DNA from: an uncultured Actinomycetota bacterium
GTDB lineage: Bacteria; Actinomycetota; Actinomycetes; JAHEKZ01
Assembly: GCA_963712425.1 (NCBI GenBank)
Contig: CAVQHW010000001.1
Coordinates: 296,721-360,720 of the forward strand
Length of the DNA stretch: 64,000 nt
Direction: 5' to 3'
A program made the translations under genes and the position numbers. The notes beneath the pieces were generated by a model. The model made no database searches and was not told the origin of the DNA. It saw nothing but the letters and a program-made list of their open reading frames with translations. Of this stretch, positions 29,161-36,055 are shown piece after piece; position 1 is the first letter of the stretch, and every line of letters starts with the position of its first letter.

Positions 29161-29287
29161 CTGAAACGCGCAGGGTTTCTGCAGGTAGGGGCCCGTTGAA
29201 GGAGCGCGACTACCGGGCTACGGGCCATGCCGTGACTACGTCAGCCCCGTGGCGGTTCGAGCGCCTCGATGCTCGCACAGGCTTTCT

Positions 29288-29530
29288 CTACGTGAGGCCA
29301 ATGAATCGGGTCAGGGCGTCCGAGTCTGTGACGGTTGCGGTCGCCCAGTCGTGGTCGCGATGAGCCAGTGGACATTCGGTCAGCGCCAGGAACTCGACCA
29401 CATGCCGACTTAGCGGGGCGGTCCTCACGCTGATGCGTAAGAAGTTCTGTTGCTCGCTGGTGAGAGATAGCCACCAGATCCACAGGTCGATTGTGGTGTT
29501 GGCATGCGGGGTATACGCCGTAGCGGTCAT
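29288..29530 (-). CDS. Small unknown protein, paralogue 1 (WW...CPL motif)
   Basis: Aligns without gaps over its first 55 residues to the neighbouring ORF 29687-29932. Start at ATG 29530 inferred from that alignment. Confidence 0.65.
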   Translation of the reverse strand: MTATAYTPHANTTIDLWIWWLSLTSEQQNFLRISVRTAPLSRHVVEFLALTECPLAHRDHDWATATVTDSDALTRFIGLT

Positions 29531-29686
29531 TGCGGCAACGTGACAGACGGACACGGCGATGCCGCGGCGATGAGGTGAACGTCAGGTGACGCGATGCGGA
29601 CTCCTCCCTGCAGGGAGGTAGAACCCAGCCATCCGCAGTCCCAAGGAGATCCCCGTCGCTCTACCGGACTCAAAGGCATTGTCGAC

Positions 29687-29932
29687 TCAGTCTCGTGTTA
29701 GGAAGGTATGAAACTGATTCGGATCGCCGAGCACGTACTCATCGGGAGCTGTTTCTGAGGCGGAGACGAGCGGGCATTGCAGCCATGCAAGCCAGGTCAA
29801 GACAGCTTGGTTGCCTGGCACAGCCGCAGACGTGGCGATCAGCAGTTCCTGGTCGTCGGTCGATAGCGTTCCCCACCAGCTCACAAGCTCTCTCGCGCTC
29901 ACCGGGGCAGCGGACCGCGGCAACGCTGCCAT
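29687..29932 (-). CDS. Small unknown protein, paralogue 2 (WW...CPL motif)
   Basis: 15 identities in the first 55 positions with 29288-29530, including W19, W20, P39, L48, A49, C53, P54 and L55. Confidence 0.65.
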   Translation of the reverse strand: MAALPRSAAPVSARELVSWWGTLSTDDQELLIATSAAVPGNQAVLTWLAWLQCPLVSASETAPDEYVLGDPNQFHTFLTRD

Positions 29933-30264
29933 CAGTTGCAGGGTTGCCTACCACTGAGACCTGTCCAACTTGTGTGCCCGACGGCTTCGCGGGTTCGCGG
30001 TGAGCATTTGGAAAACTGTCATTGCCGATAGCTTCATGGCATTGATGCTGCCTCGGCGACGCGAACAACCGCCCAACAACGAATTGCACGGGACCAACGG
30101 TCAGATGAACGATCATGTCGCACTATCGGTGACGAGAATGCCCCAGGTTGCGGTCTTCTGGGGTCACCGGACTCCAGAACGCACGGGTGAACGGCGAACG
30201 AACATTGCCAGCGGGTCTTGGCGGGGAGCGTGCGCGGTGCCAGGGTGTGGCGCCGGAGGAGACT

Positions 30265-30696
30265 ATGACGGGCGGACCACCGACCCTTGATCGCGACGCT
30301 GGGACTCCTTGCATCGGTCTCGGTAGCCGGATGTCAGTTCCCAGAGCAGATGCGACAAGCTACCCCGATCCCGACGACCACTTCAGCCGCTTCGGTTGCG
30401 TCGTCGACAAGAGCGGGAGTCATGTGAACTCGAGTTGACGTATGAGAGTCGCACCTACACCGTACGAAGCGGAGCGCTGGTGACGGACGTCGGGGAACCG
30501 ATCGAGGGCTTCGAGGTCCGGAGGATGCAGCGGCTCCGAGCCCGACGAACGGAAGCGTGCGAACGACACGGCCACCCTCAAGGCGTTCCGACTGGGCAGC
30601 TACTGCACAAGTGACGCACTGGCGGTCGAGATCGGAGAAGGTGAGCAATTGCTCGTCTTCGAGGTCAAACAACGTGAAAACTGGGTGCTGCCCTGA
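30265..30696 (+). pseudogene. Probable lipoprotein gene broken by about three frameshifts
   Basis: RBS GGAGGA plus ATG; LIATLGLLASVSVAGC lipobox, then CELELTYESRTYTV..., then ...LAVEIGEGEQLLVFEVKQRENWVLP*, each in a different frame. Confidence 0.45.
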
Positions 30697-30766
30697 ACAT
30701 CTGGCGGCAACTGCTGCTTGCAGAACGCGAACTGCCCCCGATGAGGATGGCGTTCATCTGGCCTTC

Positions 30767-31262
30767 TCACTCGATACCCGGGTAAGAGACTGCACGTATC
30801 GCACGCTTCGCCGGCGCTTGGTAACCGCAATTGCCAACGGGGATAGCCAGTCTGAACAGCCCATCTGCCGTCTGGGCGTACAGCGCTTCGGGTGCCTCTA
30901 TCACCGCCGGGCACGGGCGGTCGGCGTACGCATGGTCCGGTCGGGACAACGCAGCCACCAGGGGTTCAAATGAGGGATTGCTTGGTGCTAGGCGAACGAC
31001 GCCTGCGGGTCCGCCGCGGCGCAGAGCACACCACTATCGCCGTGGGATCGGGTACCAGCACCGTCGCCTTGACGTACGCCTCATCGAGCTTGACCTGGCA
31101 GTCCACCTGCTTGGCAGGAACTCCGCGAAGCCCTGTTGCACCCTCCTCGAAAGCCACCAGCTGCGTCGGGGTTGGTTCCGGCTCGGACTCCGGTGTTGAC
31201 GTGCATGCCGTCATCGCCAACGACGCTAGGCCGACCACTACGGCGAGGCGGTGAACCCGCAT
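30767..31262 (-). CDS. Lipoprotein; frameshift at about 31020
   Basis: RBS GGAGG, LASLAMTAC lipobox; continues as GVVRLAPSNPSFEPLVAALSRPD...CPAV...IPVGNCG in another frame. Confidence 0.6.
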
Positions 31263-31304
31263 GGGTGAGCCTCCGATTTGTTGCCCTGCTCAATGCGACG
31301 GCCG

Positions 31305-31707
31305 CTACGGGTACTCGACCAAGATGGCTCGGTCTGAGTCAACGCCTTCAATCGACCAGGCCTGGGTTGGCCTGTCGGGGTCAAGGTTCCCACTGTCGTT
31401 ACAGCCGGGGATGACGACGCCCTCTATAGGTCCTGCTGGCCGAGGCTCTTGCATGTAGCTGGGAGGCTCACTGCGGATCGTGTAGAAGTGGTCCTTCCAC
31501 GTGACTCCTGCGATGCATGCGGCAGGCACGATGAAGCCATTGGAGCCAAGTCGCTCGCCGGTGCTCACGGCCACCTCCAAGTCGCAGGGTGTCTTTGTCG
31601 TATGAATCGCTTTCAGGCATATCCGAGCCGGTACAACCGCTCAGGCTCAAGACCACAGCACCTACCAGGACGGCGATTTTCACCATGTCTGTCGGACGCA
31701 GGCTCAT
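31305..31707 (-). CDS. Lipoprotein, DUF6281-like; frameshift at about 31590
   Basis: LSLSGC lipobox in ORF 31468-31707; CIAGVTWKDHFY...IPGCND...WSIEGVDSDRAILV in ORF 31305-31580. Confidence 0.6.
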
Positions 31708-31710
31708 AGC

Positions 31711-32280
31711 TCAAGGTTCCCTAGAGGGGGCGACCTGACTCATCTCAACTAAGAACTTGCCAGTACGCATGGAGATGTAGGCGTAGAAGCCTCGACAATG
31801 CCCCTTGTCCCCGTACTCACACGCCGCACTCTTCGCTTCATCAACGACGTTCCGCAGTTCCCTGGCAGATTCGACAACTGTCTTCACGTCCTCAACCATT
31901 GAGGGAGGTGGGGCGCCGATGTAAGTCGGTGAACCAGGGCGCTGCAGCCCCCGGACCTCGCGCAAGAAGAAGGTAAGTTGCCTGCCAAGCAATGGCGGGG
32001 CCTTGAGACACCTGGCAACAGTTTCTGAGTACGGCCTGTAGAGACAGTCCCCCAGAGTGTCGGCAGTATCCGCCAAGAACTTGTCGTGAAGTCCGAAGAC
32101 AAGTGCGTAATCCTGGGATGAAGCAACACGGCCATCAGTGCTACTTGCGTCTGGGCTCACGGTCGAACGCGTGTCTGAACCAGGTGAAGAGTCACTAGTG
32201 CAGCCAGTCAGTACCACTACAGAAGCACTGAACAGCAGCAGTGCGCTTCTCCACAACCTGGGCGTTCGGCGTTGCCTCAT
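31711..32280 (-). CDS. Lipoprotein of unknown function
   Basis: VVVLTGC lipobox, Ser/Thr linker, helical domain with four Cys. Confidence 0.7.
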   Translation of the reverse strand: MRQRRTPRLWRSALLLFSASVVVLTGCTSDSSPGSDTRSTVSPDASSTDGRVASSQDYALVFGLHDKFLADTADTLGDCLYRPYSETVARCLKAPPLLGRQLTFFLREVRGLQRPGSPTYIGAPPPSMVEDVKTVVESARELRNVVDEAKSAACEYGDKGHCRGFYAYISMRTGKFLVEMSQVAPSREP

Positions 32281-32405
32281 GGCTCAAGGGTTCCCCATGT
32301 GTCGCTAGTAGACCGCTGCGACTGCCAGCGGCACCCACAATGTTTGGGGCCAGTGGACATTCTGCACACCGGGACCGCACTGCTGGATGGGTAGTGTGGC
32401 GAATT

Positions 32406-32843
32406 GTGGCCATCAAACTTGAGAACGTAGGCATCGCCGTCCGCGACCTCGAGGCGACGATCGCCTTCTTCACCGACCTCGGGCTAACGGTCCTTGGTCG
32501 TGACACGGTCAGCGGTGAGTGGACCGACACTGCCGTCGGCCTTGACGGCAATCATGCCAAGATTGCGATGCTGCAGACGCCTGACGGTCAAGGTCGCCTC
32601 GAACTCTTCGAGTACATCCACCCGCAAGCGATCGAGTCGGAGCCCACTCGCCCCAACGAGATTGGCATGCACCGCGTCGCCTTCTCTGTCGACGACATTG
32701 ATGAAGCCCTCGAGATCGCGGCAAAGCACGGTTGCCGTCCGCTCCGGGGCGTGGCCACCTACGAGGACGTCTACAAGCTCACGTACGTGCGCGGACCGAG
32801 CGGCATCATCGTGATGCTCGCCGAGGAACTGAAGAAGAGCTGA
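32406..32843 (+). CDS. VOC (glyoxalase/bleomycin resistance) family protein
   Basis: ENVGIAVRDLEATIAFF, RLELFEY, MHRVAFSVDDID, YVRGPSGIIVMLAE. Confidence 0.92.
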   Translation: MAIKLENVGIAVRDLEATIAFFTDLGLTVLGRDTVSGEWTDTAVGLDGNHAKIAMLQTPDGQGRLELFEYIHPQAIESEPTRPNEIGMHRVAFSVDDIDEALEIAAKHGCRPLRGVATYEDVYKLTYVRGPSGIIVMLAEELKKS

Positions 32844-32848
32844 GGCGC

Positions 32849-33145
32849 ATGGGCGATGCTCCCAAGGAGCGGTGGAGTTACGCCCTGGTCTTGATTCCGT
32901 TCACTGGCGTCGTTCTAGCCTTGTGGCTGCTCGTCGTTGTGAGTCAATACCCGCACAACGACATCACGGCTACCTATGCCAGTGGCATCGGTTGGATTGC
33001 GATCGTCGCGAACGGGTGGTTCACCTTTGCGGCGGTGATCGCGAAACTGAAAGCTCGCGTCATTGTGGCGATCATCAGCCTGTTTCCTACCGCGCTGTGC
33101 CTGCTCGGACTTGCAGCGATGGCAGACGCCAATAGCCCTTCCTAG
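32849..33145 (+). CDS. Small membrane protein with three TM segments
   Basis: Three hydrophobic segments; begins 5 bp after the VOC stop codon. Confidence 0.6.
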   Translation: MGDAPKERWSYALVLIPFTGVVLALWLLVVVSQYPHNDITATYASGIGWIAIVANGWFTFAAVIAKLKARVIVAIISLFPTALCLLGLAAMADANSPS

Positions 33146-33282
33146 TGCATTGATGTGTCACAACTTCTGTCACAGACCTCCCCGGATCACCCCGGACGTA
33201 AGCGCATGAAAGACATCAGACAGCAGTGCGCTGAGCACGAAACCACACCCTCACGGACCGTCTCGGACGTGCTCGGACATGC

Positions 33283-33309
33283 GTGTGCTCACTGGGGGTC
33301 AAGGGGTCG
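33283..33309 (+). repeat. 27-bp exact direct repeat, copy 1 (tRNA-Pro(GGG)-like att remnant)
   Basis: gtgtgctcactgggggtcaaggggtcg is identical to 34551-34577. Confidence 0.9.
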
Positions 33310-33364
33310 CGTTTCTCGCGCACGGGTGAATGCGGCCAAAGACGGACGGAAGCGGTCCGCGCGG

Positions 33365-33967
33365 TCAGGGGTGGGCAGGTAGGTCGCCTCGGCGAGTGGG
33401 GACCGAGAGTTGAGGTTGTAGCTCGCTGATGAGTGTGATGAGTTCGGTTTCTCGTTGGGCGTTGTACTCGATGGTGCCATCGTTCATGGCGTGCAACTCA
33501 AGAACAGCAGCGAGGTAGTCAGCATCAGCGGGTGTTGGGGCATCACCGTTGATCTGATTGCCCAGGATGTAGCTGGCGGGCCTATCGGGCCAGGTCCATT
33601 GTTCGTAGCAGAAGCCGACTCCGTCGACGTATTCCGCGAAAGCCTCACAGCCGTAAACGGTCCCTGACATTGGTTCCAGTCCCAGTGCTTCGCCAACCTC
33701 CTTTCCGGTGAGGCCTCGAATGTCGGGGATTGATGTCTGACCGTCGTTCGGCCCAGTGAGGACTGAATCGGGAGCCGAGCCCGGCCGATCCAGCCAGGCA
33801 ATACCTCCAACGAGCACCGCGGTCACCGCCGCAACGGCGATTGGAGCGATCCACCTGGATCGGAATCGTCCCTTCCACCCCAGGGTCGGTGCGTACACGC
33901 TGACGTGCGGCGCATCCTGGACGTGGCGTTGCAGGGTTTCTCTGAGTTGTTCCTCGGTGGAGTTCAT
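33365..33967 (-). CDS. Single-pass membrane protein, putative anti-sigma factor
   Basis: EEQLRETLQRH N-terminus, TM segment WIAPIAVAAVTAVLVGGIAWL; 4-bp overlap with the upstream ECF sigma. Confidence 0.7.
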   Translation of the reverse strand: MNSTEEQLRETLQRHVQDAPHVSVYAPTLGWKGRFRSRWIAPIAVAAVTAVLVGGIAWLDRPGSAPDSVLTGPNDGQTSIPDIRGLTGKEVGEALGLEPMSGTVYGCEAFAEYVDGVGFCYEQWTWPDRPASYILGNQINGDAPTPADADYLAAVLELHAMNDGTIEYNAQRETELITLISELQPQLSVPTRRGDLPAHP

Positions 33968-34470
33968 CTCTTGTATTCCTCGCTATGGGAACGCGTGAGA
34001 GTTCGAAGCGTCTTGAGGCCGTGCGAGATGTGGGATCGCACGGTCGCCACCCTGCATCCCAGGTGATCAGCGATCTCCGGGTCGGGCAGATCAAGGTAGA
34101 ACCGCATCACCAACGCTGCACGTTGTTGTCGTGGCAACTGATGCAGAAGTTGCCACATCTCGTCGTTCTCTCCGAATGCCTCGACCGTCCGGGTCTTTTC
34201 ATCGGGATGTTGATCCATGAGCTGATGGGTGTCAGTCGGGATCTCCGTTGTCATTCGACGTCGTCGCCAACTCAGGTACTCCCGCACCAGGATCTGCCGT
34301 ACGTAAGCATCGGGTCGGTCTGCCGCCTGAACTCGCCGCCAGGCGCGGTGGGCTTTGGTCAATGCGGTTTGGACGAGATCCTCGGCGGTCTGCTCATGTC
34401 CGCAGAGAAGGTAGGCAACACCCGCCAGGGCAGGCGCGTTCGCCTGGACGAAAGACTCAAAGTCGTCCAC
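33964..34470 (-). CDS. ECF (SigE-family) RNA polymerase sigma factor
   Basis: AYLLCG, AEDLVQTALTK, YVRQILVR, LPRQQRAALVMRFYLDLPDPEIA, ATVRSHISHGL. GTG start at 34470 follows GGAGG. Confidence 0.92.
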   Translation of the reverse strand: MDDFESFVQANAPALAGVAYLLCGHEQTAEDLVQTALTKAHRAWRRVQAADRPDAYVRQILVREYLSWRRRRMTTEIPTDTHQLMDQHPDEKTRTVEAFGENDEMWQLLHQLPRQQRAALVMRFYLDLPDPEIADHLGCRVATVRSHISHGLKTLRTLTRSHSEEYKR

Positions 34471-34550
34471 GCCCACCTCCCTCAACAAGTAAGACGCATC
34501 GAAAGGCCTCGATTGTGGAGTCTTCTGAGGACTTGCTGGTGCGCTCCGGT

Positions 34551-34577
34551 GTGTGCTCACTGGGGGTCAAGGGGTCG
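34551..34577 (+). repeat. 27-bp exact direct repeat, copy 2
   Basis: Identical to 33283-33309. Confidence 0.9.
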
Positions 34578-34837
34578 GGGGTTGACGACGAGGCGGCCCA
34601 ACCTCAAGGACAGCCTGAGGACGTTTGGTCGCTCGGGCCCCAAGTATTGGACCAAGAACTGGCCGTCCAAGGACTCCTCAAGCAGGTGAAAGGACTCGGT
34701 GGTAACGATTGTGCCTGTCGTTTCGAGAGACAACTGATCGGGATCGGAGACCGTCGTCCACTTCTCATCGCGCCTAGTCGGAATCTGGCCAAGAGGCAGG
34801 CAGTGAACTGCGAAGTCAGTGAGTGAGCGTTCGGCAG

Positions 34838-35137
34838 TTAGTCGGAGAGGTAGCCGCTGACGTTCCAATAATCGTTCCGAGCCCCTGCCCTCGCCACGTC
34901 ACATCCGGACCAGAACATCGCCGCCTCGTTCGAGGCATCCTTGCGCCCGTACTTCTCAGCCGCTGCATCCTGGCATGGATCGTGTCCAGAGGAGTTCCGT
35001 TGAAGATTCTGGCCTGCGTCATAACCGGCTCGGAAGTCGTCCCAAAGCCAGACCTTCGCGGAGTACGCCCAAGCACCGCCCGCCAGCCCCACCACCAGGA
35101 GTAGAGCAAGGCCGCCGACGATAAGAGTTCGCCTCAC
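34838..35137 (-). CDS. Small secreted or membrane-anchored hypothetical protein
   Basis: Signal-like N-terminus ending AWA, two Cys, F..GY..G pattern. Confidence 0.6.
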   Translation of the reverse strand: MRRTLIVGGLALLLVVGLAGGAWAYSAKVWLWDDFRAGYDAGQNLQRNSSGHDPCQDAAAEKYGRKDASNEAAMFWSGCDVARAGARNDYWNVSGYLSD

Positions 35138-35414
35138 AGTGGTGATTGTGGCAGGTCAGACGATTCCTGAGTGCGGTTTCTCATACGTGATCTCACTTGC
35201 TGCCTTCGCTCAAGTGGATCGATCTCGAACGGCCATAACGGCGGGGAGTGCTTGCGTCCGTTGCTACTCGCGCCGACCTACCATTTGGGTGAGGGGGTTG
35301 TTTGGAAGCGGAACTCGACGGAATCTCGGCTGGAACATGACTCCTATTGCACGTATGTTGCACACGGCCTCGGGTAACAAGATCGAGATACGCTCTGACC
35401 TGCGAAAATGCGTG

Positions 35415-35487
35415 CTCCCGCGACTGGACTCGAACCAGTAACCTGCCGGTTAACAGCCGGCTGCTCTGCCAATTGAGCTACGCGGGA
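35415..35487 (-). tRNA. tRNA-Asn(GTT)
   Basis: Reverse complement TCCCGCGTAGCTCAATTGGCAGAGCAGCCGGCTGTTAACCGGCAGGTTACTGGTTCGAGTCCAGTCGCGGGAG folds as a cloverleaf; no encoded CCA. Confidence 0.96.
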
Positions 35488-35545
35488 AGGTGCCCTACGG
35501 GGCCCAGCGAGAATACCAGCCGACCCACGCGAGACCTTCAGGTGC

Positions 35546-36043
35546 TCAGCCCAGCGAAACCTCGGCTCGCACTTCGTCCATAGCGCTCTGCGCCGCCCTT
35601 TGAATCTCCGGATCATCCGCAAGATCCGGATCGAGGTCGCTACGCCAAACAATCTCGCCCGACCCGCTTCGTCGCCCCACGATTCGCACACCAACGTCGT
35701 CGGTCAGTGGCACGAACCGATCAACCACGACGCTCGACGTCACACGGTCTCGTATCGCGATCGGTAGCTCACGACCGTCGCCAACGGGAACTCGCAAGGT
35801 CGCCGACTCCAGCTCGGGTATGAGCGTGACGCTCAGTACGCCACCTTCATAGGTGGCGTACTCGATCTCTTCCCAGCCAATTCGGGTGTACGCCGGCGGT
35901 GTGCGCTGTAGATGCAGCGCAGTCTCGGTTGCCACGACGGCTCGCCCTTGCCCGTCGTCGGCCCACGCCAGCACTCGCTCTTTCGGACGCAGCTCAAGAG
36001 CTTGGCGCACATCCGCGGGTAATGCAGGCTTGCGCAACTTCAC
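35546..36043 (-). CDS. Conserved actinobacterial hypothetical protein downstream of dnaG
   Basis: ERVLAWA, IGWEEIEYA, IRDRVTSSVV, GVRIVGRR patterns; co-oriented with dnaG, 12 bp after it. Confidence 0.75.
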   Translation of the reverse strand: MKLRKPALPADVRQALELRPKERVLAWADDGQGRAVVATETALHLQRTPPAYTRIGWEEIEYATYEGGVLSVTLIPELESATLRVPVGDGRELPIAIRDRVTSSVVVDRFVPLTDDVGVRIVGRRSGSGEIVWRSDLDPDLADDPEIQRAAQSAMDEVRAEVSLG

Positions 36044-36055
36044 GGGCGGCAGCCC

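Follow-up and report, generated by a model that had tools for sequence, protein, structure and literature searches.

A sigma factor operon enclosed by an exact 27-bp repeat with features of a tRNA-Pro(GGG) attachment site in an uncultured actinomycete

We analysed a 64,000-nucleotide stretch of the genome of an uncultured Actinomycetota bacterium (assembly GCA_963712425.1, contig CAVQHW010000001.1, positions 296,721 to 360,720), called the window below, in which a small operon for an extracytoplasmic function (ECF) sigma factor and its putative anti-sigma factor lies between two copies of a 27-bp direct repeat. The operon sits exactly within this pair of repeats and a related strain has the site empty, so the block has been gained or lost as one unit. 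We read the repeat as an attachment (att) core of the tyrosine-integrase type because copy 1 is flanked by a phage arm (P arm) resembling that of mycobacteriophage Giles and copy 2 by a decayed tRNA tail. It is probably the core of an att site for those tyrosine integrases whose crossover takes place in the anticodon loop of tRNA-Pro(GGG), with the operon as an integrase-less insert placed there by recombination in trans. The unit is best fitted by a minimal, integrase-less, att-flanked element akin to the cis-mobilizable elements (CIMEs). The acting enzyme, the direction of the event (gain or loss) and the present mobility of the unit are matters that we can only infer.

An original prediction, made from the letters of the window, had proposed an integrase-less cassette between att cores that could be mobilised in trans. 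The att core and the lack of an integrase held up, and the mobilisation we infer. New here are the Giles-type P arm at copy 1, the decayed tRNA-Pro tail at copy 2 and an unoccupied allele in a contig from a rhizosphere run.

The repeat and the operon it encloses

The repeat reads GTGTGCTCACTGGGGGTCAAGGGGTCG. Its two copies (Table 1) are exact and start 1268 bp apart, with no third copy in the window at up to three mismatches and 0 matches expected by chance. The identity is sharp-edged: comparing the flanks with and without gaps added nothing outside the 27 bp. A longer, degenerate repeat was ruled out, since local alignments of the left and right flank pairs scored like shuffles (P = 0.12 and 0.84). 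The 27 bases are laid out as 9, 7 and 11 nt around the anticodon-loop string CTGGGGG (33292-33298 in copy 1), that is, centred on the loop, and we predict integrase half-sites of approximately 9-11 bp on either side of this 7-nt crossover string. Read on the minus strand, the core gives RPLDPQ-stop and closes an open reading frame (ORF103). We rejected the repeat as the 3' end of a gene, as ORF103 is without homolog or Pfam family, and we treat it as an orphan or spurious ORF.

Both repeat junctions were present in independent Logan contigs (k=31) from other public sequencing runs, which we number with the prefix X (X1, covering 33025-33336; X3, 34524-34679; X18, 34500-34650). One independent contig of 2,170 nt spans copy 2 and both genes, extending from tRNA-Asn to slightly beyond copy 1. 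Because both junctions recur in contigs from other runs, the repeat is real and not an assembly duplication, and the objection of that kind raised with the original prediction fails. Three contigs stop at one shared offset within the repeat; we explain this by contigs of read length and by tagmentation bias rather than by branches in the graph.

Between the copies lie only two genes, both on the minus strand, in an insert of 1,241 bp; the 1268-bp unit noted originally, with exact repeats bounding nothing but a sigma gene and a putative anti-sigma gene, was thus confirmed. The first gene encodes a SigE-type sigma factor. An independent gene call on a Logan contig and an alignment of orthologs place its start at 34470 and not at the in-repeat GTG at 34560. 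Its closest orthologs, all on short metagenome contigs, were 65-76% identical. The second gene encodes a 200-aa protein with one hydrophobic membrane helix (residues 39-57) and a Cys-containing outer domain. This protein had no Pfam family match and one homolog at 58% identity, locus searches of metagenome and viral contigs gave no relatives, and matches to it at 35-44% identity lie downstream of the sigma orthologs. From the position of its gene, we regard it as a putative anti-sigma factor.

Upstream of the sigma gene, the arrangement CTCCAC-N17-GCGTCTTAC followed by GGAGG was invariant in an alignment of eight orthologous sigma genes. The layout is of ECF type (a short -35 box, a 17-nt spacer and a -10 element containing CGTC), and together with its position this makes it probably a promoter that is recognised and autoregulated by the sigma factor itself. 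The 64-kb window holds no second copy of the arrangement, so no local member of a regulon was seen. Homology to the orthologous sigma loci ends near 34523, 28 nt short of copy 2, and the anti-sigma stop codon lies 55 nt from copy 1; the DNA between the cores is therefore one complete transcription unit and little else. With a sigma factor consisting of regions 2 and 4 only, a membrane partner in the same operon and a promoter of its own, the pair has the composition of an ECF sigma/anti-sigma module in which anti-sigma activity and autoregulation are predicted. The GC content at third codon positions (GC3) was 0.65-0.66 in the two genes versus 0.769 +/- 0.027 in 31 flanking genes, and the base composition of the cassette is foreign.

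Identity of the repeat with tRNA-Pro(GGG)

A likeness to tRNA-Pro(GGG) had originally been proposed from the actinobacterial consensus, and it was borne out letter for letter over 19-20 nt, both in copies of this tRNA and in the phage attachment site (attP) of Giles. In tRNA-Pro(GGG), the 19-mer ACTGGGGGTCAAGGGGTCG starts with base 31, spans the anticodon loop, the 3' strand of the anticodon stem and the variable loop, and ends with the first base of the T stem. The identical stretch covers 19 nt in copy 2 (34559-34577) and 20 nt in copy 1 (33291-33310), so that both are tRNA-identical from the anticodon loop onward. The 19-mer had 75 exact matches in IMG/VR contigs and occurred also in actinobacterial metagenome-assembled genomes (MAGs) and in the Giles attP. 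A start of the identity at base 31 was common to the 75 viral copies, 12 att or tRNA copies from genomes and metagenomes, and the Giles attP. Across all fetched loci, 84 matches had 60 nt of upstream sequence that could be read. Thirty of these were complete tRNA-Pro(GGG) genes, which at the core boundary read GGTAGCGCACTTG directly followed by ACTGGGGG; the remaining 54 were partial copies typical of att sites, starting at the A or 1-2 bases earlier. The att-core reading is supported because the tRNA identity of the repeat begins at base 31, where partial provirus att copies begin. We estimate the chance of an exact tRNA identity of 19-20 nt starting at this base at ~1e-7.

The 22-mer CTCACTGGGGGTCAAGGGGTCG, a suffix of the 27-mer, matched 3 genome and 9 metagenome sequences in a search of 185,579 species genomes and the JGI metagenomes. 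All of these were ordinary 3'-half tRNA-Pro att copies extending into the T arm. The 19-mer copies and 22-mer matches elsewhere all continue into the T arm and acceptor stem, whereas the window copies do not. Further copies of the 27-mer, sought through the 22-nt suffix, were absent from the species genomes, the JGI metagenomes and IMG/VR. The 16-mer formed by the left arm and loop had two viral matches, both of which we judged to be chance.

No tRNA was found at either repeat copy by ARAGORN or the Rfam tRNA model. A pseudo-tRNA at either copy was ruled out by the same two negatives and by 5' flanks that match tRNA heads at chance level. The tRNAs of the window are tRNA-Met and tRNA-Asn only. 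Neither copy thus lies inside an intact tRNA gene, as an attL would, and the identity between the copies ends after the first T-stem base, whereas a common core of 30-45 bp would run through the tRNA 3' end and rebuild the tRNA. Short common cores unable to rebuild the tRNA are known exceptions, and mycobacteriophages usually cross over in the anticodon loop (PMC10865867).

Flanks of the repeat

The left flank of copy 1 contains three CGGAC boxes, starting at 33254, 33264 and 33274, which correspond to -37, -27 and -17 from the A of ACTGGGGG. Farther out, CCCCGGA occurs twice, 10 bp apart (33180 and 33190), and TGTCACA twice, 12 bp apart (33156 and 33168, or ~ -135 and -123). In the Giles attP, CGGAT stands at -27 and -17, and a pair of arm-type repeats spaced 12 bp lies at ~ -129 and -117. 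This attP shares 44 bp with tRNA-Pro from the same A, and the int (gp29) and xis (gp30) genes adjoin it. The integration target of Giles is the tRNA-Pro MSMEG_3734 (PMC11551767). To the left of copy 1 there is what looks like a Giles-type P arm, with phased repeats next to the core whose protein-binding role is predicted from the sequence pattern.

Boxes of the form YGGAY are rare at such sites, with 14 occurrences among 48 non-redundant partial tRNA-Pro copies. Three of the 48 (Giles and the loci L022 and L064) have them at -17 and -26/-27, and each of these three adjoins a tyrosine integrase, the pairwise identity of the integrases being only 32-36%. The boxes shared at these offsets by the attP sites of three such distant tRNA-Pro(GGG)-targeting tyrosine integrases (L022 693-758, L064 8294-8380 and L097 2440-2545) may be Xis or Int sites kept across the integrase family. 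The L022 integrase reading frame extends into the tRNA-like tail. Other 3'-half tRNA-Pro att copies of actinobacterial or metagenomic origin (L076, L078/L084, L085, L079 and L082) share GGTTCG(G/C) a few bases before CTC and ACTGGGGG, which suggests another family of related attP arms, distinct from that of the window.

Copy 2 has no YGGAY-type boxes in its left flank. On its right side, GGGGTTGACGACGAGGCGGCCCAACCT matches the T arm and acceptor stem of a genuine tRNA-Pro tail at 17/27 positions in register, a level reached by 0.14% of 40,000 random windows (empirical p = 0.0014); copy 2 therefore precedes what appears to be a decayed tRNA 3' end. This tail is not foldable as a tRNA (ARAGORN, Rfam). 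The 27 nt after copy 1 match tRNA-Pro tails at 9/27 positions, which is the chance mean, and are not tRNA-like. A consensus terminator was found neither in the spacer at 33310-33364 nor at either repeat copy.

We found no integrase adjacent to or within the element. Some 50 ORFs scanned across the window, including all small ORFs of the surrounding island, gave no match to the integrase family PF00589, and tblastn of Giles Int against the 64 kb gave a best E of 0.64 and no integrase remnant. When three integrases of this att type were compared with the island that holds the operon, the best match (E = 0.006) was a 33-aa piece of the L022 integrase ORF inside the sigma gene, which we read as similarity of a helix-turn-helix kind and not as an integrase remnant. 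These results agree with the original statement that the window has neither tRNA-Pro nor integrase and that the adjacent tRNA is Asn.

Empty and filled alleles in other strains

A single-repeat empty allele had been proposed as a check on the prediction, and one was found in a related strain, on a 187-nt contig of depth 2.4 from a rhizosphere run (X29). The contig matches 34552-34684 with three differences, and its leftmost 54 nt do not match the cassette. Placed on copy 1, it matches 33264-33309 and then continues with GGGGTTGACGACGAGGCGGCCCAGCC, the right flank of copy 2. Its order is thus a homolog of the copy 1 left arm, a single core and the copy 2 right flank, which is the window minus 1,268 bp, so that on this contig the occupied and empty alleles differ exactly by the insert and one repeat. 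The left arm is identical to that of copy 1 at 35/49 ungapped positions, a score reached by 0/2000 shuffles, and has no resemblance to the left flank of copy 2. It keeps three CGGAY boxes in register (CGGAT, CGGAT and CGGAC, at the same three offsets as in the window). The contig cannot be explained as a k=31 graph artefact of a 27-bp repeat. Its identity to the window drops at the core from 97.7% on the right to ~71% on the left, which makes the core a breakpoint of divergence as well. We take the unoccupied site, consisting of P arm, core and decayed tail, to be a relic attR or an attP without integrase, outside any tRNA gene.

In X29 and its sister run X33, right-flank pieces were present and no cassette contigs were found. 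X18 carries a filled junction, and its right flank has the single-nucleotide polymorphism 34634 C>A that X29 also has; closely related strains thus include both filled and empty forms. Contigs from another 28 runs had the filled form or did not cover the junctions, and they yielded no further empty allele, no cassette in another context and no circle junction. The actinomycete is a low-abundance member of metagenome runs from ~20 separate studies of soil, sediment and fresh water. Cassette pieces (33310-34550) in X2, X4, X6-X8, X11, X13-X15 and X17, from soil, sediment and freshwater, were 98.7-100% identical to the window; those in X19 were more diverged (3/148 and 8/151 differences), and right-flank pieces (34580-34960) in X18 and X29-X33 were 96-98% identical. 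The high cassette identity across runs could reflect recent spread of the cassette, or only the k-mer-based choice of runs.

Proposed origin and alternative explanations

The most likely event would be a conservative site-specific recombination. In this scenario, a relic site consisting of a P arm with phased CGGAY boxes, a core and a decayed tRNA 3' tail would have stood beside tRNA-Asn. A small circular DNA with an identical core would have brought the 1,241-bp, self-promoted sigma/anti-sigma operon, and crossing of the circle core with the relic core would have left a core on both sides of the operon. Int, plus Xis for the reverse reaction, would have been supplied in trans by a Giles-like element elsewhere. 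Recombination of this kind would account for the position of the insert, the centring on the loop, the filled/empty polymorphism and the lack of a recombinase.

Several points weigh against this scenario. The main weakness of the case is that the empty allele is a single 187-nt contig of depth 2.4, and it could equally be a RecA-type deletion between the 27-bp repeats. The absence of the 27-mer from the large collections, as judged by its 22-nt suffix, means that we saw no sign of cassettes or landing sites existing as a pool. The core is missing from the nearest sigma cassettes: none was found near homologous cassettes (loci L088-L096, L100 and L101) at up to 6/27 or up to 4/19 mismatches. 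We could link no integrase to the site, and the tRNAs of the window (Met and Asn) do not include the genome's tRNA-Pro. The low-depth contigs examined had no circle or tandem junction. Three features go unexplained: why the incoming DNA should carry the same 8 non-tRNA bases GTGTGCTC with no P arm of its own, why 19-20 tRNA-identical bases are perfect when the tail has 17/27, and how a circle with a bare core first arose.

A broader proposal goes beyond this single insertion, namely that uncultured actinomycetes have a cassette system in which promoter-bearing small operons with only a 27-bp tRNA-Pro core are moved at relic att sites by a prophage integrase acting in trans. We consider it quite unlikely. 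The integron-like shuffling of regulatory modules that was originally suggested found no footing: there were no other 27-mer copies in the large collections searched, no core at homologous cassettes, no array, no attC fold, and, in the low-depth contigs searched for them, no excised-circle junctions. One metagenome contig (L095, 1-11771; also L096) carries five ECF sigma/putative anti-sigma pairs in 11.8 kb, in both orientations; one of these is a 65%-identical relative of the window sigma factor, and the five-pair array has no shared flanking repeats.

A possible though, in our view, unlikely alternative derives the unit from an integrative element of full size. That element, a Giles-family phage or an actinomycete integrative and conjugative element, would have entered the relic site by tandem accretion, and later deletions would have stripped it of int, xis and all else but the sigma operon as surviving cargo. 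The unit would then never have travelled as a cassette of 1.27 kb. Such an origin is documented for CIMEs (PMC6323972). It would also suit a site that was used repeatedly, as the X29 left arm (~29% diverged) next to a 97.7%-identical right flank would suggest, and a surrounding island that is as a whole a patchwork of orphan DNA. Yet a full-size element should have left a second P arm with a YGGAY lattice to the left of copy 2, where there are no boxes, and a tRNA-like tail and int to the right of copy 1, where the match is at chance (9/27) and there is no integrase remnant. It would further need two separate deletions flush with the 27-bp core, one of them only 28 nt from the sigma promoter.

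We give little credence to the possibility that no site-specific recombinase was involved. Few-gene inserts that lack mobility genes and lie between direct target duplications of tens of bp have been described (PMC2853133), and the unit could be lost by plain recombination between the 27-bp repeats. Here, however, the duplication coincides with an integrase core, is centred on the loop, and stands right after a Giles-type P arm and before a tRNA tail. By our estimate, a random 27-bp duplication in the 2.5-kb island would overlap in this way in <1% of cases, and the study of target duplications itself separates tRNA-like repeats as site-specific events (PMC2853133).

Very improbable, in our judgement, is that the repeat is no scar of recombination but serves the module as a functional motif at its two ends, for example as a sigma-dependent promoter, operator or RNA element. 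Copy 2 lies ~30 nt upstream of the operon's -35 box and holds TTGACC on its minus strand, as such a motif might. The conserved promoter of the orthologs is a different one (CTCCAC-N17-GCGTCTTAC), however, and no ortholog has the 27-mer. Consensus scans detected no sigma-70-like promoter in 32800-35500, nor a terminator at the two copies. Folding is no better than that of shuffles on either strand (z +0.4 to +1.3), Rfam has no match, and the empty allele retains the motif without the operon. Scarcely credible, finally, is an assembly artefact in the form of a duplicated or chimeric join via a short repeat: although the window derives from a MAG, independent k=31 assemblies (among them X1, X3 and X18) contain both junctions and also the full sequence between tRNA-Asn and copy 1, and a k=31 graph cannot be collapsed by a 27-bp repeat.

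Comparison with known systems

The closest likeness is to Giles. Both cores begin at the same tRNA base (A31 of tRNA-Pro(GGG)) with 19-20 nt identical, the host phylum is actinobacterial in both cases, and both have CGGAY boxes at -17 and -27 and a 12-bp-spaced repeat pair ~120-135 bp upstream. The common core of Giles, at 44 bp, takes in the entire 3' half of the tRNA and restores it, with int ~100 bp away. In the window, by contrast, the identity ends at 27 bp and the tail has decayed; both copies lie outside tRNA genes, and there is no int or int remnant in 64 kb.

CIMEs are typically much larger than 1.27 kb. They are att-flanked islands that have lost their integration and transfer genes (PMC6323972). 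Like them, the unit has two bounding att-type repeats, here identical cores, and contains only the sigma and putative anti-sigma genes, with no integrase, relaxase or transfer genes; it occupies a site used by integrative elements and would by definition depend on a helper. CIMEs have been described mainly in Firmicutes and keep full attL and attR, whereas the window unit measures 1.27 kb, is found in an uncultured actinomycete and shares only the 27-bp core, its mobilisation being putative.

As a compact one-operon unit that has a short recombination site and lacks a recombinase, the element also resembles integron cassettes and clusters of attC sites lacking integron-integrases (CALINs), and an insertion site with extra protein-binding-type repeats on one side is loosely like attI with DR1/DR2. 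Unlike in integrons and CALINs, there is no IntI, no Pc, no folded attC and no array, but a single cassette with its own promoter at a tRNA-derived site of phage-integrase type. In place of IntI with attI and Pc next to a first cassette, the left neighbours are a glyoxalase gene and the orphan membrane ORF of 98 aa. When folded as DNA, the two copies did no better than shuffles on either strand (z +0.39 to +1.27), as opposed to the imperfect palindrome by which an attC folds when single-stranded, and the two copies bound one cassette in 64 kb. The unit does not resemble an insertion sequence, a miniature inverted-repeat transposable element or a transposon either: a transposase is absent, the ends at 33310 / 34550 do not form a convincing terminal inverted repeat, and the duplication is 27 bp long and tRNA-derived.

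Phages with tRNA-dependent lysogeny, such as Fionnbharth and Gaia, have common cores too short to restore the tRNA (PMC10865867), and the window shares with them a tyrosine-integrase-type site at the tRNA anticodon region and a short core. These are complete phages that sit in a live tRNA gene and carry a replacement tRNA; in the window, by contrast, neither partner is tRNA DNA and phage genes are absent from the insert. The restriction-modification inserts with long target duplications (PMC2853133) are similar in having a small gene set, no mobility genes and a direct repeat that is single in the empty allele. Their repeats are >30 bp, unique and not tRNA-like, and their mechanism is not known, while the repeat of the window appears to be an integrase core.

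The surrounding island and the window

The unit is part of a strain-variable island (Table 1) that also contains the att relic and three orphan ORFs and has a GC content of 0.596 versus 0.634 for the window. A relative in X2 lacks the island altogether, with a joint from 32838 to 35413. In two MAG contigs of ~90% identity, L100 and L101, its slot is filled with unrelated DNA of 1.8 kb and 2.3 kb, respectively (L100 3870-5656, with DUF6281 and a 310-aa ORF; L101 17103-19442, with a 360-aa ORF), and these two slots hold no tRNA-Pro-like core. Many different sequences continue from 32843 in other runs. We ruled out tRNA-Asn att repeats as the bounds of the island, as there is no second copy of a tRNA-Asn 10-mer near 32.8 kb.

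Table 1. Features of the repeat-bounded unit and its surroundings (window positions); functional assignments are predictions
Feature	Position	Strand	Basis or remarks
Strain-variable island	32844..35412		From glyoxalase stop (32843) to tRNA-Asn 3' end (35413); varies in every relative examined
Orphan membrane ORF, 98 aa	32850-33145		In the island
P-arm-like left flank of the candidate att site	33146..33282	+	Phased boxes, likeness to Giles attP
Repeat copy 1, candidate att core	33283..33309	+	GTGTGCTCA / CTGGGGG / TCAAGGGGTCG
Spacer, anti-sigma stop to copy 1, 55 nt	33310..33364	-	Short CGGAC..GTCCG stem
Putative anti-sigma factor, 200 aa	33365..33967	-	ATG overlaps sigma stop (ATGA)
ECF (SigE-type) sigma factor, 168 aa	33964..34470	-	Pfam Sigma70_r2 and r4_2; GTG start at 34470
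Probable ECF-type operon promoter	34489..34520	-	CTCCAC (34520-34515), 17 nt, GCGTCTTAC (34497-34489), then GGGAGG ribosome-binding site
Repeat copy 2, candidate att core	34551..34577	+	Exact 27-mer match
Orphan ORF103	34557-34868		In the island; minus-strand core at its end
Apparent decayed tRNA-Pro T-arm and acceptor tail	34578..34604	+	17/27 in register with genuine tRNA-Pro tail
Orphan ORF99	34838-35137		In the island
tRNA-Asn(GTT)	35414..35487	-	Conserved landmark adjoining the island; ARAGORN, Rfam

The remainder of the window is a conserved actinobacterial core segment (phoH, uppS, glyS, dus, dgt, dnaG, tRNA-Asn). It includes a second strain-specific island at 29167-32363, comprising 3.2 kb of small, lipoprotein-like ORFs of low GC3 with one weak DUF6281 match. 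In both L100 and L101 a CN-hydrolase gene abuts the glyoxalase gene, and 29167-32363 is therefore an insertion in the window strain or a deletion in the relatives. Two minus-strand small ORFs in it (29288-29554 and 29687-29932) look like paralogs by eye (W-W..L-[ST]...[ED]-Q..L; L..L.CPL), and neither has a Pfam family. On the other side of the unit, one X2 contig skips 529 bp (35522-36052) and thereby loses a 165-aa ORF between dnaG and tRNA-Asn, and in one X18 contig 69 nt between ORF99 and tRNA-Asn (35137-35205) are swapped for 66 other letters.

Implications for actinomycete regulatory modules

Relic att sites are usually taken as dead scars, and the one described here is the exact boundary of a presence/absence polymorphism of a regulatory module. 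If deletions alone left the unit behind, it is an ordinary case of island decay on a very small scale. If it was moved by an integrase in trans, a 27-bp core suffices to mobilise a single operon, which would offer ECF sigma/anti-sigma pairs, whose numbers are highly variable among actinomycetes, a simple route of gain and loss. An integrase/Xis system and vectors exist for Giles, so the case is directly testable. Should a cassette system driven by prophage integrases in trans be real, it would be a phage-integrase analogue of integron cassette capture, by which regulatory modules are shuffled between strains.

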